From a virus (lineage: Duplodnaviria > Caudoviricetes), in the IMG/VR virus record IMGVR_UViG_3300034685_000067, positions 3,973 through 67,972 of that record: DNA of 64,000 nt; one strand, written 5' to 3'. The position numbers were made by a program, and so were the translations under genes. The notes beneath the pieces were generated by a model, which had not been told where the DNA came from, searched no databases, and was given only the letters and a program-made list of their open reading frames with translations. This document shows, one piece after another, positions 38,401-62,139 of the stretch. Within the stretch, counting starts at the first letter, position 1; each line of letters starts with the position of its first letter.

Positions 38401-39495
38401 TTGTTTATAATAGAAAATATTATTACTGAGCAATGTACTCTTATGTGTCGTTATTGTTACATGAATAACAATCCTTTATATATGAGCAAAGAAACATTTA
38501 AAGTTATTCTAGATAATCTAGATAATATATTGAATATATACAATCAATCACAGTATCATCTAGATTTCTTTGGAGGAGAACCATTATTAAACTTCGACTT
38601 AATTGAATATGCAGTTCCACTATTACAACATGATAAAAGATGTGAATCATTTGGTATAATATCCAATCTTCTTGAATTGGATGAAAACAAAGTATCATTT
38701 ATTAAAAATAATAATATAAATGTAAGCTTTAGCTTTGATGGTTTATGGAATGAATATAATAGACCATTAAGAAATGGTACAAGTTCATTACAGTATTATG
38801 AGAAGAAAAAAGACTTGATTAAGATGATATCACCATCTTATTGTAAAACAATGGTATCACCTACTTCATTGGGTACATTGGTTGAAAATGCAAGATATCT
38901 TGCAGATGTTTGGGGTTTTTCAAATATAGATTATTCACTAGTCAGAGATGATATATGGTCAGAAGATGATATCAATAAATTTAAAAATGAGATAAGAGAT
39001 CTATCTAATTTACAGATTGAATTCTTTAAAACAGGTAAAGATGTTATAATTGGATTTTATGAATTATATCTACTTGATATGTTTATAGGATATAAGGATG
39101 GAAAAAGACCATTTGGTTGCTTTGCTGGTAGTAGAGGAATAGGCATTCTGCCCAATGGCGTTGCTTATCCCTGTGCAAGATTTGCTACAAATAGAGAATA
39201 TCCAATTTATGATTTTAATACTAATCATCTTTATAAGGAGAACTTTGATATTTTTACTGATCCTCTGGTATCTAATCCAAGAAACTTTAATAAGTGTCAG
39301 CAATGTACTTATTATGTAGGATGTAATGCTGGTTGCACATATTCTCAAATGAAGAATAATAACAATCCAGTTGCATCTATTTGCAAATTGTATGATATAA
39401 TTTATACAGAATGTTTTTATGTATTTAACAATCTTAAAGATAATAAATTATTTATAGAAAAATTAAATAAACGATTAAATAATCTAGGAGGTTAA
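38401..39495 (+). CDS. Radical SAM/SPASM protein (peptide/protein maturase type), rSAM-1
   Basis: CTLMCRYC, FFGGEPLL, SFDG; SPASM CFAG...YPC...CQQC..CNAGC...C. Confidence 0.92.
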   Translation: MFIIENIITEQCTLMCRYCYMNNNPLYMSKETFKVILDNLDNILNIYNQSQYHLDFFGGEPLLNFDLIEYAVPLLQHDKRCESFGIISNLLELDENKVSFIKNNNINVSFSFDGLWNEYNRPLRNGTSSLQYYEKKKDLIKMISPSYCKTMVSPTSLGTLVENARYLADVWGFSNIDYSLVRDDIWSEDDINKFKNEIRDLSNLQIEFFKTGKDVIIGFYELYLLDMFIGYKDGKRPFGCFAGSRGIGILPNGVAYPCARFATNREYPIYDFNTNHLYKENFDIFTDPLVSNPRNFNKCQQCTYYVGCNAGCTYSQMKNNNNPVASICKLYDIIYTECFYVFNNLKDNKLFIEKLNKRLNNLGG

Positions 39496-39501
39496 ATTAT
39501 T

Positions 39502-39816
39502 ATGTTGGATAACAATGTAATCCAGTTTAATTTATTTAATGCTGTTGAACATATTGTTGAAAGTATGAAGTTTCTTGATTATCTCATTAAGAATGATGAG
39601 GATAGTGGAAGGCAAGAAACATATGCTAATGCAATGTATAATCTTCAAATATGTGGAGATAAACTGTGTGATCTTGGAGAAATATTAATAGGAAATAAGA
39701 TAGTTCTACCTGATAAAGATCAACCAGTTGATCAACAAATTATAGAATATATTGATAAAATTCAGGAGAAAATTAAAATAAGAAAAGAAGAACATCAAGA
39801 TGGAGAACACAACTAA
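39502..39816 (+). CDS. Small helical accessory protein
   Basis: 104-aa ORF with AGGAGG SD between two radical SAM genes. Confidence 0.6.
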   Translation: MLDNNVIQFNLFNAVEHIVESMKFLDYLIKNDEDSGRQETYANAMYNLQICGDKLCDLGEILIGNKIVLPDKDQPVDQQIIEYIDKIQEKIKIRKEEHQDGEHN

Positions 39817-40612
39817 TGTTATTTATATAACCTCAAACTGTAATTTAAAGTGTGAATATTGTTTTGAAGAAGAGAAAAGACCAAATAGAACTATGACATA
39901 TGATGATATAGATAGATATTTTGAAGGAATAGATAAAATATCAGCACCTCATTCTCATATAGTCTTATTTGGTGGTGAACCATTATTATATCCAGATTTA
40001 ATAGAATATATTGTAATAGATAAGATACTTAAACAATATGACTATAAACAATATTCTGTTTCAATGACATCCAATGGTTTGAGATTATTAGAAGATGATA
40101 TTTATAATTGGTTTTTTGATCTGAGAAAAAAGAAATATATACATTTAGAAATAAGTTATGATGGACCTAATTGTTACAGACGTAAGGATAAAAATGGAAA
40201 TTGTGTAAATAATTTAATAGAAAAAGTATTGAACAAATTAAATAATGATAATAGAACTTTTGCCATATCTTATACTTTAAACAAAGATAATTATAATTAT
40301 TGCATTGAAGATGTTATTACATTGTTTGAGACATATGATCATCTGGAAAAAATAATATTAAGTATAGCTAGTCAAGATTTGGATGTTATAGACAATGATT
40401 ATCAAAGATCTGTATTGAGATTGAAACCTTATTTAAATGAGATATATAGAAGATATAGAAAACCCATTTGTGAAGAAGTATGTGATGTATGTCAAAAATG
40501 TGTTTTTAATAATAAGAACTTGTATGCTGTGCCTAATGTACCTTATCCAATAGAACATTCTAAATTTGCAAATGAAGATTTCTCATTATGGGAGTATTGT
40601 CATGAAAGATAA
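39800..40612 (+). CDS. Radical SAM protein with a short Cys-rich tail, rSAM-2
   Basis: CNLKCEYC, LFGGEPLL, TSNG, ISYDG; C-terminal CEEVCDVCQKC. Confidence 0.9.
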   Translation: MENTTNVIYITSNCNLKCEYCFEEEKRPNRTMTYDDIDRYFEGIDKISAPHSHIVLFGGEPLLYPDLIEYIVIDKILKQYDYKQYSVSMTSNGLRLLEDDIYNWFFDLRKKKYIHLEISYDGPNCYRRKDKNGNCVNNLIEKVLNKLNNDNRTFAISYTLNKDNYNYCIEDVITLFETYDHLEKIILSIASQDLDVIDNDYQRSVLRLKPYLNEIYRRYRKPICEEVCDVCQKCVFNNKNLYAVPNVPYPIEHSKFANEDFSLWEYCHER

Positions 40613-41744
40613 ATTATATACCATTTTCATCAATATGACAGATAGATGCAATTTCAATTGTAAATACTGCTTTGAAAAGGATATACATTCTTCTCATATA
40701 TTATCTCAAGATGCAGCAAAGAGTATAACTGAATTTGTAGGAAGATTATTAAATTCTCAATTTTATATATCGAATTACAATGGTATATTGATAAATTTCT
40801 TTGGTGGAGAACCAACTCTTAATCATATGGCCTTAAAATATATAGTTGACTATTTTAAACATAATGATAATATCTTCTTCTCCACTATAACTAATGGCTA
40901 CAAGATAAATATATTACAAGATATATTTAAAGATATCAAAGATTATATGATAAATAATGCATTCAAAACACATATTCAAATATCATATGATGGTTATCCT
41001 GTTCATGATATGACACGTCTTGATGTTAAAGGTAATCCAACTGGTGATATTATCTATAATAATATCAAAACAATGATAAGTGATGGTTATAATATCTCTA
41101 CTAAGTCAGTCATTACTCCAGATACATTTAAGTATATGCCAGAAGCCTATTTGGATATACGTAAACTATTGAATGATCATGGAAATTATTTTCCAACTAT
41201 AGATTATTATACTGAATATGAAAATGGTTATAAATTACAAGAACTTGAAGATGCTCTTTTAGAAATTGCTCCTTATGAAATAGATTACTTTAATCAATAT
41301 CATAAGTTCTTCTTTACATGGTTTGAACCAAATAATAATCATATCTGTGCTGCAGGTAAAGATGTAATAGGTATAGATACTAACTTAAATATATATCCAT
41401 GTGAAGGTTGTTTCTCTAATAATAAAGGGGAACATTTAATAGGAACTATCTTTGAAAAAGATATAATAGATAAATTAATTGAAAGAAAACATTATCATGA
41501 AGAGTTTGAATATAGGACCCCTGTTTGTGTAGATTGTGATACAACTACATGTTTTAAGTGTAATGTGATGAAATATAAAGTTTCATCCAAAAATGACTAT
41601 TTGAATAGATGGTATGATTATACCAATCAAGATTGGTTGTGCACATATTATAAGACAATAGGTAAGATTAAAAGAGCAGTTTTTAATCTTTTAAATAAAG
41701 GAGATGTGTATAATATTGGATCGAAATGTAGACTTGATTCTTAG
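40602..41744 (+). CDS. Radical SAM/SPASM protein, rSAM-3
   Basis: CNFNCKYC, FFGGEPTL, ISYDG; CAAG...YPC.GC...CVDC...CFKC...C. GGAG SD favours the ATG at 40602. Confidence 0.92.
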   Translation: MKDKLYTIFINMTDRCNFNCKYCFEKDIHSSHILSQDAAKSITEFVGRLLNSQFYISNYNGILINFFGGEPTLNHMALKYIVDYFKHNDNIFFSTITNGYKINILQDIFKDIKDYMINNAFKTHIQISYDGYPVHDMTRLDVKGNPTGDIIYNNIKTMISDGYNISTKSVITPDTFKYMPEAYLDIRKLLNDHGNYFPTIDYYTEYENGYKLQELEDALLEIAPYEIDYFNQYHKFFFTWFEPNNNHICAAGKDVIGIDTNLNIYPCEGCFSNNKGEHLIGTIFEKDIIDKLIERKHYHEEFEYRTPVCVDCDTTTCFKCNVMKYKVSSKNDYLNRWYDYTNQDWLCTYYKTIGKIKRAVFNLLNKGDVYNIGSKCRLDS

Positions 41745-42216
41745 AAAGATAGTATATCAATTGTCTCAAGATGATTTAGAAGGAGCATATGATACAGTAA
41801 ACAATAATGTACAATTATTAAATACAGTTGAACCATTCCTTACAGATATACTTTTAATTAGATTGTCTTTGATATTAAATAGAGTTGATAATATAAATAA
41901 TATATTTTCTAAGCTAATAGACATAATAAATACATATAGTCAACTAGATGATAAGACAAAAGAAGTATGGATAGATTTAATATTTTCTACTATTATAATA
42001 TTACTTAAACAAGATTTATCTGAAGAGCAAGAAGAACAACTATATGATGTTCTAATTTCAGATATATCCAATGAATATTACATTACTTTGGGCTTGAATT
42101 ATGCTAATAATAAAGATAATATAGATATAGATTCAGTAATAGATGCCCAAAATGAAGTATTATATGAATATATTAGAAATATGCTTAATTATTATTCTAA
42201 GTATAGGAGAGACTAA
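41704..42216 (+). CDS. Acidic all-helical hypothetical protein
   Basis: 170-aa ORF overlapping the rSAM-3 stop, immediately before the Cys-repeat gene. Confidence 0.55.
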   Translation: MCIILDRNVDLILRKIVYQLSQDDLEGAYDTVNNNVQLLNTVEPFLTDILLIRLSLILNRVDNINNIFSKLIDIINTYSQLDDKTKEVWIDLIFSTIIILLKQDLSEEQEEQLYDVLISDISNEYYITLGLNYANNKDNIDIDSVIDAQNEVLYEYIRNMLNYYSKYRRD

Positions 42217-42218
42217 AG

Positions 42219-42770
42219 ATGGGTACTTTAATTAGAAATATCACTCCACCATGTCCATCCAATTATGGTCCAGGTGGTGATGGACACCCATGTACCAGTA
42301 ATTTGACACCATGGACACAACCATCTGATCTTACCACTGCTACTATTCTAGCACAACATTTAAATGAACTTAGAGATGCTATTAGACGTGAACAAGCTAG
42401 ACGACAGATATCTCAAACAGATTTTGGTGCAAATGTTGCATCTTCTAATTTAATTACAGCAGCACATTGGTCTGCAATTAGAAATGCAATAAATACATTA
42501 AAAACATTTTCATGGTCATCATCTGTACCTACTACAGGTAATATCATACAAGCAGCACAAGCAAACGAATATAGAGCTAAAATAAATGATGCTGAAGACG
42601 ATTGTTTATGTCATTGCAATTACTGTACTTGTAATTGTAATTATTGTACTTGTAATTGCAATTACTGTACTTGTAATTGCAATTATTGTACATGTGTCTG
42701 TAATTATAGATGTACTTGTAATTGTAATTATTCTGATGCAAGGCTCAAATATGATATCTTATATATTTAA
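42219..42770 (+). CDS. Fibre-like protein with a C-terminal (CNYCTCN)n Cys-rich tract and a terminal S74 cleavage motif; candidate radical SAM substrate
   Basis: Three I.A.h.ne.R..I repeats, then 18 Cys in 43 aa, then SDARLKYDILYI-stop; AGGAG SD. Confidence 0.8.
   Translation: MGTLIRNITPPCPSNYGPGGDGHPCTSNLTPWTQPSDLTTATILAQHLNELRDAIRREQARRQISQTDFGANVASSNLITAAHWSAIRNAINTLKTFSWSSSVPTTGNIIQAAQANEYRAKINDAEDDCLCHCNYCTCNCNYCTCNCNYCTCNCNYCTCVCNYRCTCNCNYSDARLKYDILYI
42615..42731 (+). repeat. 21-bp tandem repeat (about 5.5 copies) encoding CNYCTCN
   Basis: TGYAATTAYTGTACTTGTAAT units varying mostly at synonymous positions; one N-to-V change and one Arg insertion. Confidence 0.95.
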
Positions 42771-42802
42771 TATGATTTTAATCAGATAAAACTGGAGTGA
42801 TA

Positions 42803-43093
42803 ATGATGAATGATGAAAATGATTTGGGCTTAAGTTTTATTACACAATTAAAACCATGTATTTTTAAATATAAGAACTGTAATGATAACAGAAAACATAT
42901 AGGATTTATAGCTCAAGATATCTTAAAGTTATTGCCAGAAAATGAATATGCTGTTATTATGAGAGATGAGAATGGATTCTATATGATTAATTATAGTGAA
43001 TTGATTGCACCACTTGTAAAAGCAGTTCAAGAATTAAATATAAAAGTACAAGAATTAGAAGAACAATTAAAAAGATATGGAGATGGTAAATAA
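42803..43093 (+). CDS. Stand-alone peptidase-S74/intramolecular-chaperone body lacking the SDxRLK motif
   Basis: LGLSFITQLKPCIFKYK...HIGFIAQDI...INYSELIAPLVKAVQEL plus coiled coil; own GGAG SD at 42794. Confidence 0.88.
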   Translation: MMNDENDLGLSFITQLKPCIFKYKNCNDNRKHIGFIAQDILKLLPENEYAVIMRDENGFYMINYSELIAPLVKAVQELNIKVQELEEQLKRYGDGK

Positions 43094-43815
43094 TGAGATT
43101 ACTATTTAATGTGGCTGATAGAGGAGATAAGTATGAGGTTATCAGTATAAATACAAATGAAATAGCCTATGCTGGTATGAGAGATGATATTTTAGAAGTA
43201 CCATCATGGGAAGTATATGAGACAGTAGCTAGGAATCTAAATGAAGGTAAAAAAGTATATATACCTAAATTATTAGATCAATTTTTGGATGTCTCTGATT
43301 TAGTAATAGAAGAATTGGATCCATTAGATACTGCTAAACAAACTGCTATAATAAAAGCAAGAGATATAATATATACTACCAGAATTAATAAGTTAGCTAT
43401 AGCAAAATTTTATAGATTTTTTATCCTAAGTCATTACTTTGCTGATAAAGGTATATTTATAACTGATGAAAACAGAGAAAGTAAATATCTGGAAGTTATT
43501 AATTCAGCAGCACAACTGACAGATCCAGAAGCATCTGAAGAAATGATTGCCAATCTTGAAGAGTATATTAATCTGTTAGATAATCTGGCTGAAATAAAGA
43601 ATATTTTAAAAGATTTAGATAAATTTATTGAATCAGTTAATGAAATAACATTAATATCAATGGAAGAATTGGAAGCTAGAGCAAGTTTACAGGGCACTTC
43701 AGAATCTCCTGTAGATCCATTATCAACTAAGATGGAAAATGAATTTGTAACTGAAGAGGAAGCTATTGATGCTGTAAACAATTTATATATAGCATTTGCT
43801 GATCAATATAAATAA
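43093..43815 (+). CDS. Hypothetical acidic protein, possibly fibre-assembly-like
   Basis: 240 aa with TAATG coupling to the S74 gene; LDTAKQTAI helix recalls fibre-assembly proteins (weak). Confidence 0.45.
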   Translation: MRLLFNVADRGDKYEVISINTNEIAYAGMRDDILEVPSWEVYETVARNLNEGKKVYIPKLLDQFLDVSDLVIEELDPLDTAKQTAIIKARDIIYTTRINKLAIAKFYRFFILSHYFADKGIFITDENRESKYLEVINSAAQLTDPEASEEMIANLEEYINLLDNLAEIKNILKDLDKFIESVNEITLISMEELEARASLQGTSESPVDPLSTKMENEFVTEEEAIDAVNNLYIAFADQYK

Positions 43816-43818
43816 TAT

Positions 43819-44553
43819 GTGATGACAGATGTTATTTCAAAATCTGTAGCTTTTATTATATATTGTTATGGCAAATATAAACTTATAAAAGATAACATAT
43901 CATATAATTTTGAGAGATATGCTAATAAGTATAATTATACTTTAATTATATCTGAACAAGAAAACAATTATAATTATCCATGGATTAAGCTTAATTCATT
44001 TAATCTTCTGGATAGTTATGATTGGGTGATAACATGTGATTTGGATGTATATATTTCACCCTCTTGTCCAGATATAATTAATTTATGTAATGAAAACAGT
44101 TTTAATCAAATTACCAATACATTGATGACAACATCCAGCTTATTTGTAATACATAAATCATTATTAAAATATAGATCATTGTTTTTAAATTATGTCCAGT
44201 TTATAGATAAATCTATAAAAGATAATTGTATAAAATGTATACCAGATTGTAACATGTCTGAGTATAGAGATGTAATAGATGAAGAATGTTGGCTTACAAG
44301 AATGCTATATTTAAATCAAATCAATAAACATACTATTAATATAAATATGTATACTACCAATAGAGATAATATATTACTTCCAGCAGATTGTTATAGATAT
44401 AATATGATTCATTTTAATAGTTACAATTATCATAATATATTAAACATAATACCTGAATTATTTAAATTGTTAGATAAGAAAGAAAAAGTAAATATATTAA
44501 ACAGATATATTTTAAACAAATGGGGTAATCAATATGCCCTCAGACAACTATAA
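43819..44553 (+). CDS. Putative GT-A glycosyltransferase
   Basis: YANKYNY...PWIKL...YDWVITCDLDVYI (DxD), DEECWL and MIHF. Confidence 0.7.
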   Translation: MMTDVISKSVAFIIYCYGKYKLIKDNISYNFERYANKYNYTLIISEQENNYNYPWIKLNSFNLLDSYDWVITCDLDVYISPSCPDIINLCNENSFNQITNTLMTTSSLFVIHKSLLKYRSLFLNYVQFIDKSIKDNCIKCIPDCNMSEYRDVIDEECWLTRMLYLNQINKHTININMYTTNRDNILLPADCYRYNMIHFNSYNYHNILNIIPELFKLLDKKEKVNILNRYILNKWGNQYALRQL

Positions 44554-45022
44554 TATAGATCAGTTTTTAGTAGGAAAACCATATCATCAAAAGTTAAATT
44601 TTAAAATATTTAAGCATTATGATCATTTCAATCATGACGCTTTTTTAACATGTGTAAGTAAAGGAATGCTGACTAATGATCAGCTAGACGAAATATTTAG
44701 TTATCTGGATGAGGATCAAAAACTGTTAATATCTGTTAAAAAGGGACAATATATAGAACATCCCAGAATAATACTTCTATATGAAAATCCTAAAGACTTT
44801 CATTCCCTTTTTGACACATATGTTTATTATCATACAGGATATTTTGACCCACATCCAAGATTATTTTATGAATGTATATTCTATAATAAGAAGATAATTT
44901 ATATTAACAAAGCTAATATTAAAGATGGTGGGTATTACAGATATTATGATGCTATTAATAATGGATTACAGAATGCTTGGCTTGATGATAATGATAAAAT
45001 AGTTAAAAATTTTACTAAGTAA
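44534..45022 (+). CDS. C-terminal half of a GT-B-like family member
   Basis: Aligns with the C-half of ORF 45498 (NPKDFHSLFDTY/NPSDLFSLFDTY; FDPHPRLFYEC..YNKKIIY/FDYSPRMLIEA..FGKKIIY). Confidence 0.65.
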   Translation: MPSDNYNIDQFLVGKPYHQKLNFKIFKHYDHFNHDAFLTCVSKGMLTNDQLDEIFSYLDEDQKLLISVKKGQYIEHPRIILLYENPKDFHSLFDTYVYYHTGYFDPHPRLFYECIFYNKKIIYINKANIKDGGYYRYYDAINNGLQNAWLDDNDKIVKNFTK

Positions 45023-45043
45023 AAACATAAGGATCTGATTATA

Positions 45044-45511
45044 TTGTCAATATTTATTAAATCAGATATAAATGCAGTTATACATGTTATCTTACCATTT
45101 ATAAATGGTGGATTATTTGATGCTTTTGAATACTATACAAGCATATATGACAACAATAAAGAAATATATTTGATATTGATATTTAATCCATCTTTTAATT
45201 ATAATTTAAATAATATAAATATTACAAACATACAAACATTGTTTAATGATAAATATATGTTATCTTCAGATATATTTGATAATGTAATATTTCTCAAAAG
45301 ACCAAGTCAGCTTATTAGATACCAATTTAATAAAGTTTTGATACTGGATAATCATACGTTATATTATATCAAGGATGTGCTGAATGCTCAGGAATATCAT
45401 GTTATAATAGATCCTTTTATACCATCAAAAACAGATTATCATCAATTAAGTAAATTTAATAATTATCACTTATATTCTGAATTGTTATTATATAATAATG
45501 GAGATAACTAA
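45044..45511 (+). CDS. N-terminal half of a GT-B-like family member
   Basis: INAVIHVILPFINGGLFDAFEYY aligns with MNAVIHYFL...FINGSFFYILDYY of ORF 45498. Confidence 0.65.
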   Translation: MSIFIKSDINAVIHVILPFINGGLFDAFEYYTSIYDNNKEIYLILIFNPSFNYNLNNINITNIQTLFNDKYMLSSDIFDNVIFLKRPSQLIRYQFNKVLILDNHTLYYIKDVLNAQEYHVIIDPFIPSKTDYHQLSKFNNYHLYSELLLYNNGDN

Positions 45512-46433: not shown

Positions 46434-46443
46434 GGGAGACATC

Positions 46444-47313: not shown

Positions 47314-47315
47314 AG

Positions 47316-49213: not shown

Positions 49214-49215
49214 AA

Positions 49216-50085: not shown

Positions 50086-50089
50086 TAAT

Positions 50090-53669: not shown

Positions 53670-53670
53670 T

Positions 53671-54564
53671 ATGATAGACATATTACATGTAGCAGATAAT
53701 AGAAATATAAGTGGTACGTTCACATCATTGATAGATGTGTATTATAATCTATTAAACAATAATTATACTAATGTTAAATTACATATTTTATGCTATACAG
53801 ATATATTAAATGTGTTTAAACTATATCAGTCATTTATTAAGACCTTCTGTCCTAATGTAGGTATTTCATATCATCATATAAATCAATTTGATAGTATTAA
53901 AACAGATATATTGATAACCACAACAGAATTATTGTCATTTTATTATATGCACTCTAATTATATTCCCAAATTAAATTATAATAAGTTTATAGTGCTTGAT
54001 TCTGCTGGATTTTATCAATCATATGAAGAAGAACAGTTTAAAGATTGTTTCAGAGTAATACCAAATGATGCTATAATATTATGTAATAAAGCTAATCTTA
54101 AATTATCTCCATGGAAGAATTCATATGAATATTATATTAAATTGTCAGAAGATAGATTAAGTATATTAAAACAATATAGCGTACCTATTTCTAATGATAG
54201 ATTAAAATCATCATATTATATACCAATTGATGCTAAATATGTTTATAATGATTTAAAGAAACAAAAGATTTTGACAACTGATATATATAAAGTGTATGAA
54301 GTTCACTTTTGCAGAAGATATTTATCAAGTACTGGAACATATAGTGAGAATATAGGCAAATTAATATTTGAAATGATATGGTTGGACAGACCAGTATATT
54401 ACTATAGTAAACCAAAGACATTTGATGATGGATTACATTATTATCTTCAATTATTTAACGTAGATGATAATAAGGATCAGCTATTATCTATAACCAAGGA
54501 AGACATTGAAGATAAATTATTTATACATGATGATGATCTTTTATATAAAATAATAGAGGATTGA
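53671..54564 (+). CDS. Divergent GT-B-like protein (same family)
   Basis: ISGTFTSLIDVYY; ENIGKLIFEMIWLDRPVYY...DDGLHYYLQLFNVDDN. Confidence 0.5.
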   Translation: MIDILHVADNRNISGTFTSLIDVYYNLLNNNYTNVKLHILCYTDILNVFKLYQSFIKTFCPNVGISYHHINQFDSIKTDILITTTELLSFYYMHSNYIPKLNYNKFIVLDSAGFYQSYEEEQFKDCFRVIPNDAIILCNKANLKLSPWKNSYEYYIKLSEDRLSILKQYSVPISNDRLKSSYYIPIDAKYVYNDLKKQKILTTDIYKVYEVHFCRRYLSSTGTYSENIGKLIFEMIWLDRPVYYYSKPKTFDDGLHYYLQLFNVDDNKDQLLSITKEDIEDKLFIHDDDLLYKIIED

Positions 54565-54570
54565 TAGTAA

Positions 54571-55506
54571 TTGCATATGTTTAATATTTCAAACAATATT
54601 AAAGAGAAATTTCATTATAGATACAATATACCATATCCTATTCATATGTACAGATATGCTAAAAATGCCAATGAAAGAAGACAATTGTTAAATTATATGA
54701 TAAAATTTAACATATTACCATCTTTAGATATTATATATATTGAAACTATCAATTATTGTAATCTTACATGTAACTTCTGTCCAGTTGGTGAAGGACAAAG
54801 AATAAATAAAGCCACAATGTCAGATGAACTATTTGATCATATATTAAATTTAATTGGACAAATTACAGATAAAAGTAAAGTTACTGTATGTATGAATGGT
54901 CATGGAGAACCACTACTAGATAAAGATATATTTAAGAGAATAAATAAATTAAAACAATTTTATCCACAATTTCGTACTGTATTATTTACTAATACTACTT
55001 TAATACAAGATAGAATAGATGAATTAGTTAAAAGTAAACTAGATTATCTCATGTGTGATTTTTATAATGAAGATGATAAGACTAAATGCTTAGAATTGTT
55101 TAATGAATACAATATTGCTTATAATAAAGCTCTTGATTATTGGGGAAATATTAATAATAGATTAAATGTAAGATATTCTGAAGTATATAATTCAGAAGAG
55201 TCTTTCTATAATAATAGATTAGGTACTGTAAATGTAGGTCCATCTGAAATTATAGATGAACCTTGTATATTTTCATTCATTCAATTACCAATTAATGTAA
55301 ATGGTAATATAAGATACTGCTGTATAGATGCTATGGATAAAACAGTATTTGATAATGTTTTAAACTATAATAATATTTTAGAACTATGGTATAGCAAATT
55401 ATATAATGATATAAGATGTAATTTAAAAGATAGTAAATTAAAAGATACTGCTTGTAGGCAATGTAACAATCATGATTATTTAAAATTTAGATTGATCTAT
55501 ACCTAG
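54571..55506 (+). CDS. Radical SAM/SPASM-Twitch protein, rSAM-8
   Basis: IETINYCNLTCNFC, GHGEPLL, FTN; PC...YCC.D...CRQC. Confidence 0.92.
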   Translation: MHMFNISNNIKEKFHYRYNIPYPIHMYRYAKNANERRQLLNYMIKFNILPSLDIIYIETINYCNLTCNFCPVGEGQRINKATMSDELFDHILNLIGQITDKSKVTVCMNGHGEPLLDKDIFKRINKLKQFYPQFRTVLFTNTTLIQDRIDELVKSKLDYLMCDFYNEDDKTKCLELFNEYNIAYNKALDYWGNINNRLNVRYSEVYNSEESFYNNRLGTVNVGPSEIIDEPCIFSFIQLPINVNGNIRYCCIDAMDKTVFDNVLNYNNILELWYSKLYNDIRCNLKDSKLKDTACRQCNNHDYLKFRLIYT

Positions 55507-55521
55507 AGGAGGAAACATAAA

Positions 55522-57279
55522 GTGACCAAAGTAATTATGCTTGTATCACACGCTGCCTCTTTTAAAGTATTTAATGAGTTGAAACAATATTTGTATGTAA
55601 AAGGGTGTAGTGATATAGATTTATCATATTATTATTTCCCTTTGAGATTTGCATATTATGATAGTAATTACATTATACCAATTTTTCCAAATCATAATAT
55701 AAATGTTCCAGCTATATATAATCATCATGCTATATCTACAGATGTACCTCAAGAAGAGTTATACTTATGTCAGAAATTAGCTGATGTTGTAGAATATTTA
55801 CTCCAAATAACTAGTAATTTTATTAATAATAGACCATTGGATTATAATCTAGAATCTTGTTCATGGACACACAGTAAAAAGTTTGCTCAGTATAAAAAGT
55901 CAAAAATATATGACGCATCAGATATTTTAAGTATTGTTGATAATATACCAAAAGCAGATATATATTTATTTACGCATGCAGAGAATGCTTCTGCAGTAGT
56001 TCAATATTTATTGATATTTAATTTAATTAGAAAATATAATAGTCATGTATTACTTGGTGGTGGAGAAAATTTAAATTATAACAATCCAGAGACAATTTTA
56101 TTAAATAAAATTAGTGAAAACTATTTAGATAACAAATTACATAAATGTTCTGGAGATATAGGACCCACATTGATCAATTTCTTAAATAATAAAGAATATT
56201 CAACATCATATGCTGATATTCATGATTACTTTATTAAACCATGGGTAGTTGATTTTACTCCATATGAACTTCATGAAATTTGTGGTGATACATTATACCT
56301 TTCAACAGTATATGGTTGTTCTGGGCGTTGTCCTTATTGTGTTGGTAGTAATCTTCATCCATATACATCATTGGAAAATTTAGAATATTATAAAGATATA
56401 CTAGAATATATGAGTGATGTATATCCAGAAGTGTCTATTACATTTTTTGATACAGAATTAAACAGAGATAAAGATAGATTTAATACAATGTTAGAGTGGT
56501 TAATACAACATAATATAAAAAATAAGTTGAGTTTCTTTATTAATTTATCACGTTTAGATAAAGATTCATTAAATTTGATAAAACAAATTAATGTAAATTG
56601 TATAAATTCTGCTTTTGATGGTATGTTTGAATATAATGTTCATAGACATTCTATTAGCACTCAAGATGAATTCTCTATAATTAATAATTTAGATTCCTTG
56701 AAAAAAATAGTTTTAAATCAAGGAGGAACTTTAGCATTTAATTCAGTTATGTTTATACCAAATTCATTAGATCTTTTACGATATAGAGATGATCCTTCTT
56801 TTGTAACTAATGTAGCTATGCAGTATGTTAAATATGCTTCTGATTTAGCATTAGATTTTAATTTATATGACCTTAAACTAAATTCTGATATGTATTTTAA
56901 TAAAGACAAATATAATATTAAAGTATTTAATTATCAAAATAAAAAATTTAAAGATTTGCATGATATAGATGATGCTATTAATAATATACCAATATTTTTT
57001 ACATATGATTTGCCTCGTAAAGAAAGAACAAGAATTTTACATCAAATGTTTATGGTATGGAAAAAATATGATTTTTTAACTTTGAATAATATTATGTCTA
57101 GATGTTTTGATAATAAATATAAAAGTAATTTCACTGGTTATAAATCATATAAAAAGTTAGATGAAGATATGAACATTAATGGATATATTGAACTGGCCAG
57201 TTATGTATTGCAGGATATGTTAGATATGTTTGGGCCAAATGATGACATAGTACAATATATTATGTCAAATATAAGATAG
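55522..57279 (+). CDS. Radical SAM protein with an N-terminal B12-binding-like domain, rSAM-9
   Basis: About 250-aa N-extension with VLLGGG, then STVYGCSGRCPYC and FFDTELN, as in class B radical SAM methylases. Confidence 0.7.
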   Translation: MTKVIMLVSHAASFKVFNELKQYLYVKGCSDIDLSYYYFPLRFAYYDSNYIIPIFPNHNINVPAIYNHHAISTDVPQEELYLCQKLADVVEYLLQITSNFINNRPLDYNLESCSWTHSKKFAQYKKSKIYDASDILSIVDNIPKADIYLFTHAENASAVVQYLLIFNLIRKYNSHVLLGGGENLNYNNPETILLNKISENYLDNKLHKCSGDIGPTLINFLNNKEYSTSYADIHDYFIKPWVVDFTPYELHEICGDTLYLSTVYGCSGRCPYCVGSNLHPYTSLENLEYYKDILEYMSDVYPEVSITFFDTELNRDKDRFNTMLEWLIQHNIKNKLSFFINLSRLDKDSLNLIKQINVNCINSAFDGMFEYNVHRHSISTQDEFSIINNLDSLKKIVLNQGGTLAFNSVMFIPNSLDLLRYRDDPSFVTNVAMQYVKYASDLALDFNLYDLKLNSDMYFNKDKYNIKVFNYQNKKFKDLHDIDDAINNIPIFFTYDLPRKERTRILHQMFMVWKKYDFLTLNNIMSRCFDNKYKSNFTGYKSYKKLDEDMNINGYIELASYVLQDMLDMFGPNDDIVQYIMSNIR

Positions 57280-57291
57280 AGATAGACTAAA

Positions 57292-58293
57292 ATGAATAAT
57301 ATAAAATATGCATATGGATTAGATAATGAATATACTTTGACATTAATTATTACAAATCAATGTAATTTACATTGTGATTATTGTTTATATTATGGGCGTG
57401 TTAATGATGTTAACAAGCATTATTTATCTCCAATAGTTGTTAATAATTTTATGGATGTTTATTTTAATGATATAAATAATACGCACCCAATTAATATGGT
57501 TATCTCTGGAGGAGAACCTACTTTATCACCATATTTTCTTGATATTGTTGAATTATGTGCAAATAATTCCTCAGTAAATAATATATTCATATTGACTAAT
57601 GGTCTATGTGATCCAAATATATTTATTAAAGCAAATAGTATAACGAAACAATATAATAAATTATTATTTGTATGTATAAGCATACACATGTCACAAATAA
57701 ATCTAATAGATAAATATATTGAGAAAATAAATTATTTAACATCTAATAATATATATGTAAGAATTAAAGCTATTGTTGATCCAAGTAAGATAAATAAAGA
57801 AACGTTATTATATTTACAATCAAACAATATTGAAATCTCCCCATTATTTGGATCTAATATTACTAGATTTAAACATATACAAGAATTAAACTTATATAAT
57901 TCTGTTAAGAATAAATTATTAATACATTATGATAACAATAGTGAAGAAATATGTTCACTATTTGACATTAGAATACAAAAACATAATCCTTTTAAAGGTT
58001 ATTATTGTACAAGTTCATTTCAGAATATAACTGTTAATGAAGATGGTTATGTATTTTCATCATGTTTTGCAACAAATGGATGTTCATGTTGGTCCAAATC
58101 TAAGCTACAACATTTTAACATTATCATTAAACAGCATAGAAAATGTCTTTTAGATGTATGTAATTGTTATCATCAGCCAATTAGATATAAAGATATTAGC
58201 ATGTTACCATATTTGATAGACAAACAAAAAGAAAATATAGCAGAATATAAAACAATTAAAATATATGATAACAGTGATATAATTTCAAGATGA
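57292..58293 (+). CDS. Radical SAM protein, rSAM-10
   Basis: CNLHCDYC, SGGEPTL, TNG, SIH; FKGYYC...C...C....C.C. Confidence 0.92.
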   Translation: MNNIKYAYGLDNEYTLTLIITNQCNLHCDYCLYYGRVNDVNKHYLSPIVVNNFMDVYFNDINNTHPINMVISGGEPTLSPYFLDIVELCANNSSVNNIFILTNGLCDPNIFIKANSITKQYNKLLFVCISIHMSQINLIDKYIEKINYLTSNNIYVRIKAIVDPSKINKETLLYLQSNNIEISPLFGSNITRFKHIQELNLYNSVKNKLLIHYDNNSEEICSLFDIRIQKHNPFKGYYCTSSFQNITVNEDGYVFSSCFATNGCSCWSKSKLQHFNIIIKQHRKCLLDVCNCYHQPIRYKDISMLPYLIDKQKENIAEYKTIKIYDNSDIISR

Positions 58294-58850
58294 GAACAGT
58301 TTTAATACATTCATGGAAAGATGAATATATTTCATACATAAATAGAGATGATATTTTAACATTTGATGATGCGCTGTATTCTATATATCATCATAGAAAA
58401 GATATATCTATGTTACCAAACCAAAAAATTATATGTATACCAACTGGTAGAATATTAACTGAAAGAAAAAACAAATCCATTGCAACAGATTGTTACACAG
58501 CTAATAATATGTGGTTAATCAATAATGATAATTCTGCTTATATGATTATTGATGAAATTAAAGAAATGATGTCATTAGGCTTTGAAATTGGTGGACATAG
58601 TCATTTCCATGATAGAGAAACACATCCAAGAATTTTAAAGATATTGAATATAGAAAGCAAATTAATTACCAGGGGTAAATCATATTATGAATATGATACT
58701 CAACTTATGATAGATTGGTTTTTAGATATACTTGGTTATGTTCCTAAATACTATGCTTTTCCATATAATGAAGAGACTGAAGCACTTAAAAGCTATTTAC
58801 AATCAGTTGGTTTTGATGTATTCTTTGGTAAGGAAAGATATTCAATATAA
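58290..58850 (+). CDS. NodB-type polysaccharide deacetylase
   Basis: LTFDDA, GFEIGGHSHFH and YAFPYN. Confidence 0.85.
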   Translation: MRTVLIHSWKDEYISYINRDDILTFDDALYSIYHHRKDISMLPNQKIICIPTGRILTERKNKSIATDCYTANNMWLINNDNSAYMIIDEIKEMMSLGFEIGGHSHFHDRETHPRILKILNIESKLITRGKSYYEYDTQLMIDWFLDILGYVPKYYAFPYNEETEALKSYLQSVGFDVFFGKERYSI

Positions 58851-58868
58851 GGAGGTTGACATTATAAA

Positions 58869-59852
58869 ATGAATAATAAAACAATTATGGTTACTGGCTG
58901 TTTGGGTACTGTAGGAATATTTACTATCAATGAATTGCTTAAAAGAGGTTATTATGTAATAGGTGTTGATAATTTATCTGGAAATCCATATTCCAGAATA
59001 CATTGTATTAAGAGTAATAATAACTTTCTCTTTGTTAATAATAGAGCATATGATGAGCACAAAACAGATGCTTTAAATAGAATATTTAAAGATTATAATG
59101 TATCAGCTATATTACATCTGGCAGGTAAAATTGGTGTGACTGAATCATTTGATCTTGAGAAGTCTGATGAGTATATCAATTCAAATGTAGCTTTTACATT
59201 AAAGATGTTAAATTATGCAAAATTATATAATGTAAAAAGATTTGTATATGCATCAAGTTCATCCATATATGGAAACAATAAAGTTCCCAGTACAGAAGAT
59301 TTAATACCTAATCCAGAGTCTGTATATGGTGTTACAAAGTATGCTGGAGAAATGTTGTTAGCACAATATCACAATCTGTTTGGTTTAGAGACTATAGCAT
59401 TGAGATACTACAATATATTTGCACCAATTAAATATTATAGTTATAAAGGTGTAGTTCCAATGTTTGCTGAAAAGATAATGAATGATAAATCTATAGTATT
59501 ATTTAATAAAGGTCAACAAAGAAGACAGTTCGTACCAATAGATAATATAGTTCATGCTAATATTCTTGCTTTGGAGACAGATAATAAAGAATGCTTTGGA
59601 AATGTATTTAATATTACAGTAGATGATGAACCAATAGCTTTAATTGATTTAGTTAACTTATTATATAAATTATTAAATAAAACACCAAATTATACATTAA
59701 AATCTGAAAAAAGTTTAGGTGATATAGATGTGGTGTGGGGATCTTCTGATAAAGCTAAGAATTATTTAGGATATCTTGTTCAAAAATCAATGTATGATGG
59801 TATAGAAGAATATTGCAGATATATAAACAATGAGGTGAGAGATTGTGGCTAA
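58869..59852 (+). CDS. NAD-dependent nucleotide-sugar epimerase/dehydratase (extended SDR)
   Basis: VTGCLGTVG, HLAG, ASSSSIYG, YGVTK and LRYYNIF. Confidence 0.92.
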   Translation: MNNKTIMVTGCLGTVGIFTINELLKRGYYVIGVDNLSGNPYSRIHCIKSNNNFLFVNNRAYDEHKTDALNRIFKDYNVSAILHLAGKIGVTESFDLEKSDEYINSNVAFTLKMLNYAKLYNVKRFVYASSSSIYGNNKVPSTEDLIPNPESVYGVTKYAGEMLLAQYHNLFGLETIALRYYNIFAPIKYYSYKGVVPMFAEKIMNDKSIVLFNKGQQRRQFVPIDNIVHANILALETDNKECFGNVFNITVDDEPIALIDLVNLLYKLLNKTPNYTLKSEKSLGDIDVVWGSSDKAKNYLGYLVQKSMYDGIEEYCRYINNEVRDCG

Positions 59853-60813
59853 TATAGAATATGCATATGGATTAAGTAACAGATATACTCTTACGTTGAA
59901 TATTACAAATGTATGTAATTTACATTGTGAATATTGTGTATATTATACTCACATTCAAAATAATAAAAAATATTACTTGTCTACTGCAGTTCTCAATAAT
60001 TTTATGGATATGTATTTCAATGATATGAACAATATTCATCCTGTTGATATAAATATATCTGGAGGAGAACCTACTTTATCACCATATTTTCTTGATATTG
60101 TAGAATTATGTGCAAGTAAAGCATTAATTAATGATATATTTGTGATTACAAATGGTTTATATGATCCTGAAATATATATTAAGGCTGATAATATAGCTAA
60201 AAAGAATAATAAATCATTATTTGTATGTATAAGCATACATATGTCTCAACTTAGAAATATAGAAAACTATATTCAGAAAATAAAGTATCTAAGATCTAGT
60301 AATATAGATACTTGTGCTAGAGCTATTGTTGATCCCAATAAGATAACTGAAGAGATGCTGTTATATTTACAATCTAATTATATCAAAATTTTGCCATTAT
60401 TTGGATCCAATATAATTAAATTACATAATGTGTCTGATCTTAAATTATATCATGCAATTCAGAATAAATTATTAATACATTATGATGATAATAAAGAAGA
60501 AATATGTTCACTATTTGACATTAGAATACAAAAACATAATCCTTTTAAAGGTTATTATTGTACAAGTTCATTTCAGAATATAACTGTTAATGAAGATGGT
60601 TGTGTTGCTTCAGCATGTTTTCTAGCAGATACATATTCAGGTTGGTCTAAATCTAAATTAAGACATTTTAATATTATAAATAGACAACATAGAAAATGTA
60701 TTTTAGACATATGCACTTGTTTTTCTTCTCCAATCAGATATAAAGATATTAAATCATTACCATATTTAATTAAAAAACAAAAAGAAGATATAATAAAATA
60801 TGGATATGATTAA
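59845..60813 (+). CDS. Radical SAM protein, recent paralogue of rSAM-10, rSAM-11
   Basis: CNLHCEYC; collinear with ORF 57292 at a constant 2553-bp offset. Confidence 0.92.
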   Translation: MANIEYAYGLSNRYTLTLNITNVCNLHCEYCVYYTHIQNNKKYYLSTAVLNNFMDMYFNDMNNIHPVDINISGGEPTLSPYFLDIVELCASKALINDIFVITNGLYDPEIYIKADNIAKKNNKSLFVCISIHMSQLRNIENYIQKIKYLRSSNIDTCARAIVDPNKITEEMLLYLQSNYIKILPLFGSNIIKLHNVSDLKLYHAIQNKLLIHYDDNKEEICSLFDIRIQKHNPFKGYYCTSSFQNITVNEDGCVASACFLADTYSGWSKSKLRHFNIINRQHRKCILDICTCFSSPIRYKDIKSLPYLIKKQKEDIIKYGYD

Positions 60814-61666
60814 AATACCTTATAACTTGATAATAAAATATCTTAACAATGAAGGTCAAAAAGCAACATCAGTAGCATACTATTTAAAATATAAATATCT
60901 TGGACATATAATAATAAGTAATCATATTATTAAAGAATGCAACAGAAATATAATATTAACTCAAATACCTTTCTTTTATAGAAAGAAAAAAGAATTATTT
61001 AATGAAGTACTAAATGCTATTCACTTCTTGAGACCACATCTGGTTAATTATTTCAAAAACAGTGCTACAAATGGATTCTCAGTCTATAAAACAATACAGG
61101 GGTACAAATTCTGTATTCCAATGATGTATGATTATCATTGTCCAATTATTAGTAATAATAATCAACAAGATAATATAATAATTGGTTATTACAATACTTC
61201 TTATAGAAATACTAAAGAATGGTTTAAACAATTTATTAAAGATAATGATAAATATATAGATAAAGTATATATACTTGGTGAATCTATGCCTGAATGTCCT
61301 AATTTTATATACACCAAAGATAAAGATTTATTTTTCTCTAATATCACCCACTTTATTTATCCTATGTCCAAAACATTTATTGATCCATGGCCAACTACAT
61401 TAGAAGAAGCAGTGAGATGTAATAAACAGATAATAATATTACCATCTAATAGAAACTGGCATGATGGTATAGATGATATATGTTCTTGTATAAGATATCA
61501 TACCAGTTTAAATTTAGATAAATATTATGATAATACAAATTGCAGTATAAATATGTTTGATTTGACTGAGTATTATGATACTCTTTTATTTGATAATAAC
61601 TTCGAATATAAAATTGATAGAACCAAATATAAAAGCTTTAATGAGTGGTGTAGTGAATGGTGTTAA
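60800..61666 (+). CDS. Divergent GT-B-like protein (same family)
   Basis: IIIGYY, and FIYP...IDPWPTTLEEAVRCNKQIII...DGI, the closest match to a GT4 motif. Confidence 0.55.
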   Translation: MDMIKIPYNLIIKYLNNEGQKATSVAYYLKYKYLGHIIISNHIIKECNRNIILTQIPFFYRKKKELFNEVLNAIHFLRPHLVNYFKNSATNGFSVYKTIQGYKFCIPMMYDYHCPIISNNNQQDNIIIGYYNTSYRNTKEWFKQFIKDNDKYIDKVYILGESMPECPNFIYTKDKDLFFSNITHFIYPMSKTFIDPWPTTLEEAVRCNKQIIILPSNRNWHDGIDDICSCIRYHTSLNLDKYYDNTNCSINMFDLTEYYDTLLFDNNFEYKIDRTKYKSFNEWCSEWC

Positions 61667-62055: not shown

Positions 62056-62139
62056 TCTATTATTCTAAAACGTGGTATCCATTAATCAACTTTGAACAAA
62101 GTAATGATAAAAATATTTGAACAAGGAGTTGTCTGTACT

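Follow-up and report, generated by a model that had tools for sequence, protein, structure and literature searches.

A radical SAM-rich gene island beside a cysteine-heptad fibre-type gene in an uncultured jumbo phage: a possible two-part locus for virion-fibre maturation

The DNA analysed here, which we call the window, is a stretch of 64,000 nucleotides (nt) from a 67,972-bp viral record of IMG/VR (IMGVR_UViG_3300034685_000067, record positions 3,973 to 67,972), and the element in question is a 23-kb island at window positions 38401-61666 that encodes 11 radical S-adenosylmethionine (SAM) enzymes. We found that the island consists of two parts: module A (38401-43815), in which three radical SAM enzymes, designated R1, R2 and R3, stand directly upstream of a small fibre-type protein with an array of cysteine heptads, and module B (43819-61666), which holds the other eight radical SAM enzymes together with sugar-type enzymes. 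It seems to us rather probable, from the relationships of the sequences and the conservation of gene neighborhoods, that two or three thioether-maturase-like radical SAM/SPASM enzymes act on the Cys-heptad protein. For the combined proposition, a two-part island devoted to the maturation of a virion fibre, we judge the case to be evenly balanced. The features of module A are the following, and open reading frames (ORFs) are named below by their first position:

38401-39495, + strand: R1, radical SAM/SPASM enzyme, PapB/CteB-like (Pfam Radical_SAM, 43 bits)
39502-39816, + strand: small acidic helical ORF after R1, putative accessory protein (no Pfam, PHROG or NCBIfam match)
39800-40612, + strand: R2, radical SAM enzyme with a four-Cys C-terminal motif (Pfam, 56.6 bits)
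40566-41744, + strand: R3, radical SAM enzyme with a SPASM-like seven-Cys C-terminal domain (Pfam, 43.6 bits)
41704-42216, + strand: ORF without a family match (Pfam, PHROGs and NCBIfam negative)
42219-42770, + strand: Cys-heptad fibre-type protein, 183 residues with 20 Cys (phrog_26958, E = 3.5e-24)
42609-42730, + strand: 21-bp tandem repeat encoding the heptads (Tandem Repeats Finder, period 21, 5.7 copies)
42797-43093, + strand: rest of the Peptidase_S74 chaperone domain as a separate ORF (Pfam PF13884, 37.7 bits against a cut-off of 22, profile positions 16-55 of 58)
43093-43815, + strand: conserved partner ORF after the heptad and S74 genes (phrog_25260, E = 2.2e-9)

PapB was the best NCBIfam family for all three module A enzymes. 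R1 matched the PapB model (NF047865) over positions 8-325 of 330 with an E-value of 4.8e-43 and 147.7 bits, R2 had the same family as its top match (2.1e-21, 76.5 bits), and R3 matched it at 1.3e-23 (83.8 bits), with the CXXX-repeat maturase family at 4.8e-20. The next families for R1 were the nif11, SCIFF, CXXX-repeat, HxsB and QhpD maturases, and the anSME family scored far lower (50.5 bits). The sole solved relative of R1 was the thioether maturase CteB (5wgg, E = 4.7e-16), in an alignment that spans the SPASM domain. This domain in R1 was recognized by NCBIfam TIGR04085 (35.4 bits against a cut-off of 27) and fell under the cut-off of Pfam SPASM (18 bits), and its seven Cys (C240, C258, C299, C302, C308, C312, and C328) were invariant among 11 R1 homologs. 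Seven extra Cys of R3, with CX2CX4CX2C spacing, were likewise invariant in 10 homologs. R2 had four extra Cys only (C224, C228, C231, and C234, invariant in 8 homologs), short of the seven of a SPASM domain, and likely holds one auxiliary cluster. The other eight radical SAM enzymes of the island gave only generic N-terminal NCBIfam matches, e.g., to MoaA, viperin, and HxsC.

The candidate substrate, 42219, comprises an N-terminal domain of ~125 residues, an array of C-[D/N]-C-N-Y-C-T heptads, and an SDxRLKxxIxY segment that runs up to the stop codon. This last segment corresponds to the first strand of Peptidase_S74, the intramolecular chaperone domain found in tail fibres and tailspikes. The remainder of the domain is encoded by 42797, whose matches lay at the C-terminal ends of 23 PHROG families; the tail category accounts for 19 of these, mostly tail fibre or tailspike families. 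Because 42219 ends in the first strand of a fibre S74 domain whose remainder is made by 42797, we take it to be a small fibre-type structural protein; by PHROG matches, its gene also sits between fibre genes. Reading stops at 42770 in 42219, and 42797 lies in a different frame without open overlap. The domain is broken at the same residue in six related loci (L002, L005, L007, L010, L015, and L018; related loci carry L numbers throughout) and fused only in L016. The spacer between the two ORFs differs by a one-nt indel in L020 and in one RNA-library contig, so that the relative frame is not conserved. Non-overlapping frames, a recurring break and an unconserved frame therefore argue for a two-gene arrangement rather than a frameshift or an assembly error, and we believe the split to be genuine. 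The "intramolecular" chaperone would then act partly in trans here, aiding the folding or trimerization of 42219. A homotrimer prediction for 42219 from a 10-row alignment returned a score of 0.00 with the verdict "no answer", which is evidence neither way. As a separate observation, 42797 has its own GGAG-type ribosome site.

Among 1.84 billion representative sequences we counted, for the 42219 family, 466 representative clusters at E-values of 1e-3 or less, 272 at 1e-10, and 70 at 1e-30, most of them 150-250 residues long and with the N-terminal domain covered too. The number of heptad units per protein ranged from 3 to >26, with F-for-Y and P-for-T variants (L043-L045 and L073), and two to four heptad-protein genes stood in tandem in some relatives (L005, L025, L034, L035, and L037). 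At the end of the heptad array (42728-42729), contigs from two RNA-library runs carried in-frame insertions of 9 or 12 nt, indicating that repeat length varies among close relatives.

The association of R1-R3 with the heptad gene was seen from both directions. A scan of IMG/VR with 42219 gave 17 loci whose heptad proteins were 26-53% identical to it (three more loci were found later), and these were compared with the island ORFs by tblastn, some pairs of loci being near-identical contigs. In 12 of the 17 (L002, L005-L010, L013, L014, and L016-L018), homologs to R1 (36-48% identical) and R3 lay directly upstream of the heptad gene in the same orientation, accompanied by an R2 homolog in 10 of these 12. 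Two more of the 17, those of Campylobacter phages CP21 and CPt10, had an R3 homolog 3 kb downstream, and one had no upstream DNA. The near-identical L003 and L004 showed no radical SAM gene in 10 kb upstream and extend for merely 0.9-1.6 kb downstream; in their closest relative, L021, homologs to R3 and R1 are located 3.3-5 kb downstream. The usual order in relatives was R3, R1, another gene, R2, another gene, the heptad gene, S74 (in some), the 43093 homolog, another gene, a GT-B-like glycosyltransferase gene, and then two radical SAM genes with another gene between them. Whole related contigs of 193-207 kb carried 7-16 radical SAM genes, concentrated around the heptad gene, and of the 10 in the related contig with a completeness rating of 100%, 9 flanked it.

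In the reverse direction, a search with a profile built on 11 R1 sequences gave 78 loci, several on near-duplicate contigs. Thirty-seven of these encoded proteins at least 31% identical to R1, and 27 of the 37 had a same-strand run of at least three heptads within 5 kb, at +3.0 to +4.7 kb or at -1.8 to -3.1 kb. Two more (L048 and L051) had interrupted heptad proteins and two were too short to judge, giving a heptad gene within 5 kb in 29 of 35 assessable R1 loci. Among the 41 more distant radical SAM loci this heptad occurred in none, and other short Cys-repeat peptides occurred in four. The latter (L059, L074, L088, and L090) encode peptides with CxCxxCx-, CECE-, or CTCT-type repeats 124-254 nt upstream of a distant PapB-like radical SAM gene, pairs that look like the classical precursor-maturase layout of peptides that are made on ribosomes and modified after translation (RiPPs), carried by phages. 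When 57292 and 38401 had earlier been used as single sequences to scan viral contigs, no locus was confirmed, the R1 profile succeeding later; similarly, tblastn of 42219 against phage records gave no match even though CP21 and CPt10 hold a relative, probably as a result of the low-complexity filter.

The original prediction for this DNA, made from the letters and their ORFs, had supposed that a Cys-repeat fibre is involved with the island and had named synteny across related phages as a check. The link between repeat protein and island was borne out by the loci above; the R1-R3/heptad association is kept, and the content of module B changes. Other members of module A are kept to differing degrees. 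Homologs to 43093 lie directly downstream of the heptad/S74 genes in many loci, and 43093 has a weak match to gp015 of phage CP220, beside the baseplate hub. An ORF of ~100 residues occupies the position of 39502 in L007, L013, L017, and L018, the mutual similarity of these ORFs being judged by eye, and a comparison of 39502 with the N-terminal extensions of the relatives' R2 proteins was not significant (best 5 bits, E = 0.008, in a four-sequence database). A homolog to 41704 was found only in L020, a 92%-identical relative, among the loci compared with the window ORFs. Four RNA libraries, which come from four studies and bear the labels sludge, activated sludge, biogas fermenter, and anaerobic digester, yielded contigs that cover 38.3-43.6 kb with 90-99% identity and run across the R2/R3, R3/41704, 41704/42219, and 42797/43093 junctions, with no transcript ends revealed; as DNA carry-over is possible in such libraries, these contigs are weak evidence. 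Their sparse coverage of 43.6-58.3 kb shows neither silence nor absence.

The repeat itself follows a strict grammar, which we tabulated from 245 units (170 heptads and 75 octads, the latter with one extra residue after the aromatic) in 37 distinct runs from 48 loci, the three Cys being fixed by the search pattern. Position 2 was N, D, or Q in 235 units, position 4 was N or D in 241, and position 5 was Y (186 units), F (43), or H in 242; position 7 was T in 183, P in 38, and I in 10. Every unit contains two C-x-x-[D/N] motifs, and over 811 Cys, a D, N, E, or Q stood at i+3 of 66% and at i+2 or i+4 of 1%. Conservation is thus as strict at the carboxamide/carboxylate positions as at the Cys, and the Thr and the Tyr hydroxyl are dispensable, a pattern that appears to suit thioethers between Cys and Asn/Asp side chains better than glycosylated Thr or Tyr. 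The proposal that Cys, Thr, Asn, or Tyr of the repeat could be glycan attachment sites accordingly lost ground for Thr and Tyr, which are replaceable in relatives, and for the repeat Cys, which are more likely cross-linked than glycosylated, given that R1-R3 resemble thioether maturases and that the heptad protein is their conserved neighbor.

We propose that R1, R2, and R3 would act on 42219 before assembly, in the reducing cytoplasm, by abstracting a hydrogen from a side-chain carbon and joining that carbon to a Cys sulfur. The likeliest acceptors would be the Asn/Asp of C-x-x-[D/N], since each unit has two such motifs, and the repeat would end up with thioether (ranthionine-type) staples set along it like the rungs of a ladder. 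In contrast to disulfides, such bridges would withstand reducing, anoxic surroundings.

Several characterized systems resemble this arrangement in part. PapB works along a repeated Cys/Asp motif. PapB/PapA (freyrasin) and CteB/CteA (SCIFF) belong to the best-scoring families for R1-R3, CteB being the solved relative of R1, but the PapA and CteA substrates are short secreted peptides with leaders whereas the candidate substrate in the window is a fibre-type protein, and the spacing is C-x-x-D/N in the window repeat against C-x3-D in the PapB/CteB systems. Closest in layout is CrpC of Methanococcus voltae, a SPASM radical SAM enzyme that installs ranthionine on the 28.8-kDa protein CrpA, with a C-X-X-Q/D motif in CrpA/CrpB and cross-links shown by mass spectrometry (Dieter et al. 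2026, PMC13692751). As there, a SPASM radical SAM enzyme in the window and in its relatives is encoded beside a Cys-rich protein with such a motif, not a short peptide, and CrpA as described shares with 42219 a non-repeat part at the N-terminus and tandem Cys repeats at the C-terminus. This likeness rests on the description of CrpC, and there are differences: the CrpC system is described as archaeal and cellular, its repeat is 17 residues long, and it has a single enzyme and a predicted RiPP recognition element (RRE), whereas in the window the unit has 7 or 8 residues with three Cys among them, the enzymes number two or three, and an S74 fibre end lies within a phage tail module. Neither "phage" nor "viral" is used as a word in the CrpC/CrpA paper (PMC13692751). 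A further radical SAM/SPASM enzyme, QhpD, is cited there as forming Cys-Asp and Cys-Glu thioethers in the protein subunit QhpC (PMC13692751). The QhpD family was among the matches to R1 (E = 2.6e-17), but QhpC is a single small enzyme subunit with three cross-links, no repeat array, and no role as a virion part. Our literature search for radical SAM modification or stapling of phage fibres found no publication, with CrpC/CrpA as the closest precedent; in a cyanophage study, a radical SAM and an amidinotransferase gene are called "antibiotic synthesis genes" with no target named (PMC12801897).

Among phages, the nearest parallel is offered by CP220 and CPt10, with 11 and 12 radical SAM genes, respectively, and a variable cluster of five radical SAM genes plus an amidinotransferase whose content differs between the two phages and whose purpose is left unassigned (Timms et al. 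2010, PMC2853527). We found the window to have the same kind of variable block (at least five radical SAM genes, an amidinotransferase, and glycosyltransferase-like genes in a large myovirus). Jointly, CP220 and CPt10 hold homologs to R1 (CP220 gp023, 34% identity), R2 (CP220 gp099, 30%), R3 (CPt10 gp141, 33%), the heptad protein (CPt10 gp145, 53% over the repeat), the amidinotransferase (CP220 gp086), the deacetylase, and 43093, the last next to the baseplate hub. The gp145 gene, annotated as hypothetical with a 21-bp repeat, is located between the tail tube and an RNA ligase/tail-fibre attachment gene. The window differs in belonging to another phage lineage and in having as one block the genes that are dispersed in CP220/CPt10. 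A second Cys-repeat protein of CPt10 (L019, 8921-11176; gp169-gp166) is annotated with insect-antifreeze-like repeats and lies ~0.8 kb upstream of another radical SAM gene, so that this region may hold a second substrate-enzyme pair. The DNA of CP220 is described as fully modified with 7-amido-7-deazaguanine (bioRxiv 10.1101/2023.04.13.536721), which accounts for just one QueE-type radical SAM enzyme and leaves the others of CP220 unexplained.

A number of observations weigh against a stapled fibre as the product of the locus. The scores of R1, R2, and R3 (147.7, 76.5, and 83.8 bits) are far under the curated PapB cut-off of 340, and since none of their scores reaches a curated cut-off, the three are not members of the PapB family or of the other maturase families listed. 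Neither an RRE nor another leader-recognition element was detected, as Pfam gave no PqqD/RRE match for R1-R3 or 39502; R1 begins straight at its radical SAM core. Five of the 35 assessable R1 loci (L023, L033, L042, L053, and L057) have no nearby heptad gene, a sixth (L047, which is CPt10) has it elsewhere in the genome, and the flanks of a large CP21-type heptad protein in L022 have no radical SAM gene. The homologs of module A are dispersed over the CP220 and CPt10 genomes, so adjacency of R1-R3 and the heptad gene is not obligatory. Moreover, the CP220 cluster of radical SAM, amidinotransferase, and glycosyltransferase genes (gp080-gp089) adjoins gp5-like lysozyme/PAAR baseplate spike genes, and the heptad relative in CPt10 and CP21 lies at ~160 kb of the 176 kb of CPt10, far from the region of that cluster; module B may for this reason serve another target. 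Metal binding or disulfide formation is an equal possibility for the CxCxxC array. Lastly, the model of the module B radical SAM enzyme 57292 was of limited quality (predicted local distance difference test score, pLDDT, 64.8) and matched MoaA, viperin, and BlsE, which act on nucleotides or sugars, about equally with anSME, SkfB, EpeE, and TigE, which act on peptides, so that its fold search cannot separate peptide from nucleotide or sugar substrates.

Module B contains the following features:

43819-44553, + strand: ORF, earlier candidate for a GT-A glycosyltransferase (no Pfam, PHROGs, NCBIfam, or PDB profile match)
44534-45022, + strand: C-terminal half of a GT-B-like family protein (33% identity to residues 154-310 of 45498; matches the C-terminal halves of 270-residue relatives)
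45044-45511, + strand: N-terminal half of a GT-B-like family protein (matches residues 13-109 of the same 270-residue relatives)
45498-46433, + strand: GT-B-fold glycosyltransferase-like protein (AlphaFold2 and Foldseek)
46444-47313, + strand: GT-B-like protein, second subfamily (40% identity to the C-terminus of 53671; hhalign)
47316-48329, + strand: protein sharing only a C-terminal GT-B-like motif (hhalign 85.6%, 56 columns)
48326-49213, + strand: short radical SAM enzyme (Pfam 37 bits; only N-terminal generic NCBIfam matches)
49216-50085, + strand: short radical SAM enzyme, paralog of 50856 (Pfam 37.2 bits; 29% identity to 50856)
50090-50881, + strand: class I SAM methyltransferase that has a Cys pair motif (Zn-ribbon) at its N-terminus (Methyltransf_23)
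50856-51713, + strand: short radical SAM enzyme (Pfam 36.1 bits)
51710-52771, + strand: amidinotransferase (StrB1, 1bwd, first, then SxtG, HsvA, and AGAT; no Pfam match)
52761-53669, + strand: short radical SAM enzyme (Pfam 49 bits)
53671-54564, + strand: GT-B-like protein, second subfamily (hhalign of the 46444/53671 family against the 45498 family)
54571-55506, + strand: radical SAM/SPASM enzyme (Pfam Radical_SAM 46.1 bits; SPASM 31.8 against a cut-off of 21.5)
55522-57279, + strand: long radical SAM enzyme with an N-terminal domain of ~250 residues (CxxxCxxC at residue 266; PhpK family, 24.3 bits)
57292-58293, + strand: short radical SAM enzyme with four conserved C-terminal Cys (Pfam 31.2 bits; alignment invariants)
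58290-58850, + strand: NodB-type polysaccharide deacetylase (Pfam Polysacc_deac_1)
58869-59852, + strand: NAD-dependent nucleoside diphosphate (NDP)-sugar epimerase/dehydratase (Pfam Epimerase)
59845-60813, + strand: short radical SAM enzyme, paralog of 57292 (68% identity)
60800-61666, + strand: conserved protein with a C-terminal GT-B-like motif (hhalign 77.8% over 82 columns; homologs in L005, L014, and L015)

The gene inventory of the original prediction was confirmed in nearly every respect, the GT-A glycosyltransferase being the exception. A single N-terminal CxxxCxxC was present in all 11 radical SAM ORFs, and a six-frame scan of the entire 67,972-bp record found these same 11 and no further ones. 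Ten of the starts that had been listed for them were as given; the third enzyme, R3, starts at a TTG at 40566, the listed 40602 being an internal ATG. Ten of the 11 reached the Pfam Radical_SAM (PF04055) gathering cut-off of 29.5 bits, and 55522 stayed under it at 26.1-26.7 bits; a class-B (cobalamin) type is weakly suggested for the latter. The sugar-type enzymes claimed alongside them held up as well: the epimerase (58869) matched Pfam Epimerase with an E-value of 1.7e-44, the deacetylase (58290) scored 25 bits against a cut-off of 23.1, the methyltransferase (50090) 27.2 against 27, and the amidinotransferase (51710) matched StrB1 in phmmer at 7.7e-46 over 72-350, with the C-terminal FHC..LD motif aligned, the motif being read with the catalytic-Cys residue numbering that we take to hold for StrB1/AGAT-type enzymes. 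The last was also ~33-37% identical to CP220 gp086. The island is 99.4% coding and entirely on the + strand, and the genes from 36625 to 63869 do mostly overlap or abut, as had been noted, with overlaps at 14 of 31 junctions and gaps of 0-25 nt at another 13.

Six GT-B-like units had been proposed, and a GT-B family was supported. A model of 45498 from an alignment with 13 homologs (pLDDT 84.5, predicted template modelling score 0.86) gave 92 Foldseek matches in the PDB with E-values of 1e-3 or less and template modelling scores of 0.5-0.6, including MshA, BshA, WbnH, PimA, OGT, and SPY, and the 46444/53671 family was homologous to the 45498 family (hhalign 92.6% over 227 columns). Of the rest, 60800 and 47316 share the C-terminal nucleotide-sugar half as a motif only, and 44534 and 45044 are halves. 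The two halves, which are one 270-residue protein in relatives, stand in the order C-half, N-half, full copy (45498), and this looks like a rearranged or split duplication. The GT-B-like ORFs had no Pfam, NCBIfam, or PHROG match, which leaves them outside curated glycosyltransferase families; ESM Atlas gave leads only (Glycos_transf_1 and DUF2827, at 0.89-0.90), and PDB profile searches with the 60800, 53671, and 43819 families returned nothing meaningful. As for the GT-A candidate, presumably 43819, no search gave support to this identity: none of its four homologs (58-99% identity, one being the window's own cluster) had a Pfam domain, and 43819 was unrelated to the GT-B family. The six short radical SAM enzymes each had four conserved C-terminal Cys when aligned, fewer than the seven of a SPASM domain. 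Two of them, the paralogs 57292 and 59845, flank the deacetylase and epimerase genes and are the product of a recent duplication within the island. Homologs to 60800 in relatives lie close downstream of the heptad gene.

Module B combines eight radical SAM enzymes and five to seven GT-B-like proteins with an epimerase, a deacetylase, an amidinotransferase, and a methyltransferase, a set that would speak for a pathway in which modified (amino or guanidino) sugars are made and transferred, although it might add other modifications instead. The fibre of module A could be its target, as could another component of the virion or of the host surface. In most relatives GT-B-like genes and short radical SAM genes lie downstream of the heptad gene, but their numbers and combinations change, which would be expected of a determinant of host interaction. 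Decoration of the stapled fibre is only one option for module B, and on whether it acts on the same protein as module A we lean somewhat toward the negative. The fullest version of our proposal, in which phages of anoxic habitats build a part of the tail fibre as a RiPP-like product, a heptad rod being thioether-stapled by two or three radical SAM/SPASM enzymes and then decorated by fast-evolving radical SAM enzymes and glycosyltransferases with amidino- or amino-sugars, is one that we put forward as doubtful.

The best-surviving alternative is a single nucleotide-sugar or small-molecule pathway, in which all 11 radical SAM enzymes tailor an amino- or guanidino-sugar or a pseudo-oligosaccharide and the heptad protein is at most an acceptor or a mere neighbor. 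This was the preferred view of the original prediction, and the epimerase match, the nearness of the amidinotransferase to StrB1 of streptomycin biosynthesis, the match of the short radical SAM model (57292) to MoaA, viperin, and BlsE, and that of the GT-B model (45498) to MshA and BshA are all consistent with it. MshA and BshA pair with deacetylases. It is also in keeping with such a pathway that CP220 has radical SAM, amidinotransferase, and GT-A-like genes away from its heptad gene. It is set back by the first rank of thioether peptide maturases for R1-R3, by the changing content of module B, set against a closeness of R1-R3 to the heptad gene that holds in 29 of 35 and 12 of 17 loci, and by the replaceable Thr and Tyr of the repeat. 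We thus consider one pathway for all 11 enzymes unlikely, with a sugar or amidino pathway remaining plausible for the other 18 kb; the original interpretation is in this sense partly supported.

Alternatively, the heptad array could be a metal-binding, Fe-S-binding, or disulfide-bonded element, with the SPASM enzymes performing other chemistry, such as formylglycine formation as by anSME, epimerization as by EpeE, or C-C cross-linking. The CxCxxC spacing resembles metal-thiolate motifs. SPASM enzymes catalyze several chemistries, with anSME and EpeE among the fold matches to 57292, and the other Cys-repeat protein of CPt10 is annotated as insect-antifreeze-like; metal binding is also weighed by the authors of the CrpA study (PMC13692751). 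We find this reading quite unlikely all the same, in that thioether maturases are the best families for R1-R3, with anSME at 50.5 bits against 147.7 for PapB, and in that the i+3 carboxamide/carboxylate, which would be needless for a pure metal site, is kept as strictly as the Cys.

The enzymes might instead boost or remodel the metabolism or envelope of the host, as was proposed for CP220 in 2010, and sugar enzymes could indeed alter a surface polysaccharide; the island, though, has no membrane or export component by Pfam, is tightly linked with a fibre-type gene and its chaperone, and encodes maturase-like rather than housekeeping radical SAM families, all of which makes such auxiliary metabolism or host-surface conversion improbable. 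Least probable is that the radical SAM enzymes, glycosyltransferases, and amidinotransferase modify bases of the phage DNA, an alternative allowed for in the original prediction that the modified DNA of CP220, with its requirement for one QueE-type radical SAM enzyme, and weak QueE-like matches of some short radical SAM enzymes might favor, but that is without positive support because TGT/DpdA and QueC are absent from the related contigs examined (TGT in 0 of 4, although the DpdA3 type may escape PF01702, and neither TGT/DpdA nor QueC in the 100%-complete genome with 10 radical SAM genes), TGT/DpdA, QueC, QueD, and FolE being also absent from the island by Pfam and the island itself lying inside the fibre module.

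The island had been placed between fibre and lysis genes, and its flanks agree with this:

36625-38328, + strand: tail fibre protein, upstream flank of the island (PHROG tail fibre families, best E = 4.6e-22)
61657-62055, + strand: small hydrophobic ORF before the endolysin, possible holin (position and hydrophobic stretches; no Pfam or PHROG match)
62092-62718, + strand: endolysin (Glyco_hydro_108, E = 5.5e-23; PG_binding_3, E = 6.9e-15)

The window as a whole has ~27% G+C with coding nearly all on the + strand, and the completeness of the record was estimated by CheckV at 25%. Its upstream part encodes a terminase large subunit, a tail sheath, a helicase, a baseplate wedge, and several tail fibre proteins, and the tail sheath (7824-9437) is nearest to those of Bacillus phages AR9/PBS1 (~31% identity) and then Yersinia phage phiR1-37. 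From these structural, terminase, and helicase genes and the affinities of the sheath, the source appears to be a fragment of an uncultured jumbo myovirus. AR9 and PBS1 are uracil-DNA jumbo phages. A 1,243-residue protein at 20621-24352 has a C-terminal peptidase domain as in tape-measure/tail lysin proteins (PHROG E-value of ~1e-25). A megablast search of the 23-kb island against 50,697 phage records gave no match, and no tRNA was found within the window. A promoter scan returned 210 sites against 210.2 expected and was uninformative, with one 11-of-12 site in the 72-nt gap before 38401. Between 24% and 45% of sampled words were present in DNA runs labelled landfill, sludge, oil field, digester, or biogas, figures that we did not use as habitat evidence.

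The best-supported core of our proposal is the fibre pairing, RiPP chemistry applied to a virion part, with kinship to the protein ranthionine systems and to the radical SAM clusters of the CP220 type. If it is true, radical SAM thioether chemistry would reach beyond small secreted peptides and serve viruses to harden or diversify a structural part of the virion, in surroundings where disulfides are unreliable, giving a receptor-binding or stabilizing element that is chemically diverse and reduction-proof. It would offer a testable answer to why some large phages have ~10 radical SAM genes, and the same logic would cover the 11-12 of CP220 and CPt10 that have been unexplained since 2010, for which CPt10 gp145 and the homologs to R1, R2, and R3 in CP220/CPt10 are candidate enzyme-substrate pairs in cultured phages. 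The variable sugar and radical SAM module is a candidate determinant of host range or defence evasion, and with at least 466 sequence clusters in the heptad family, the repeat grammar could help to engineer stapled protein rods.

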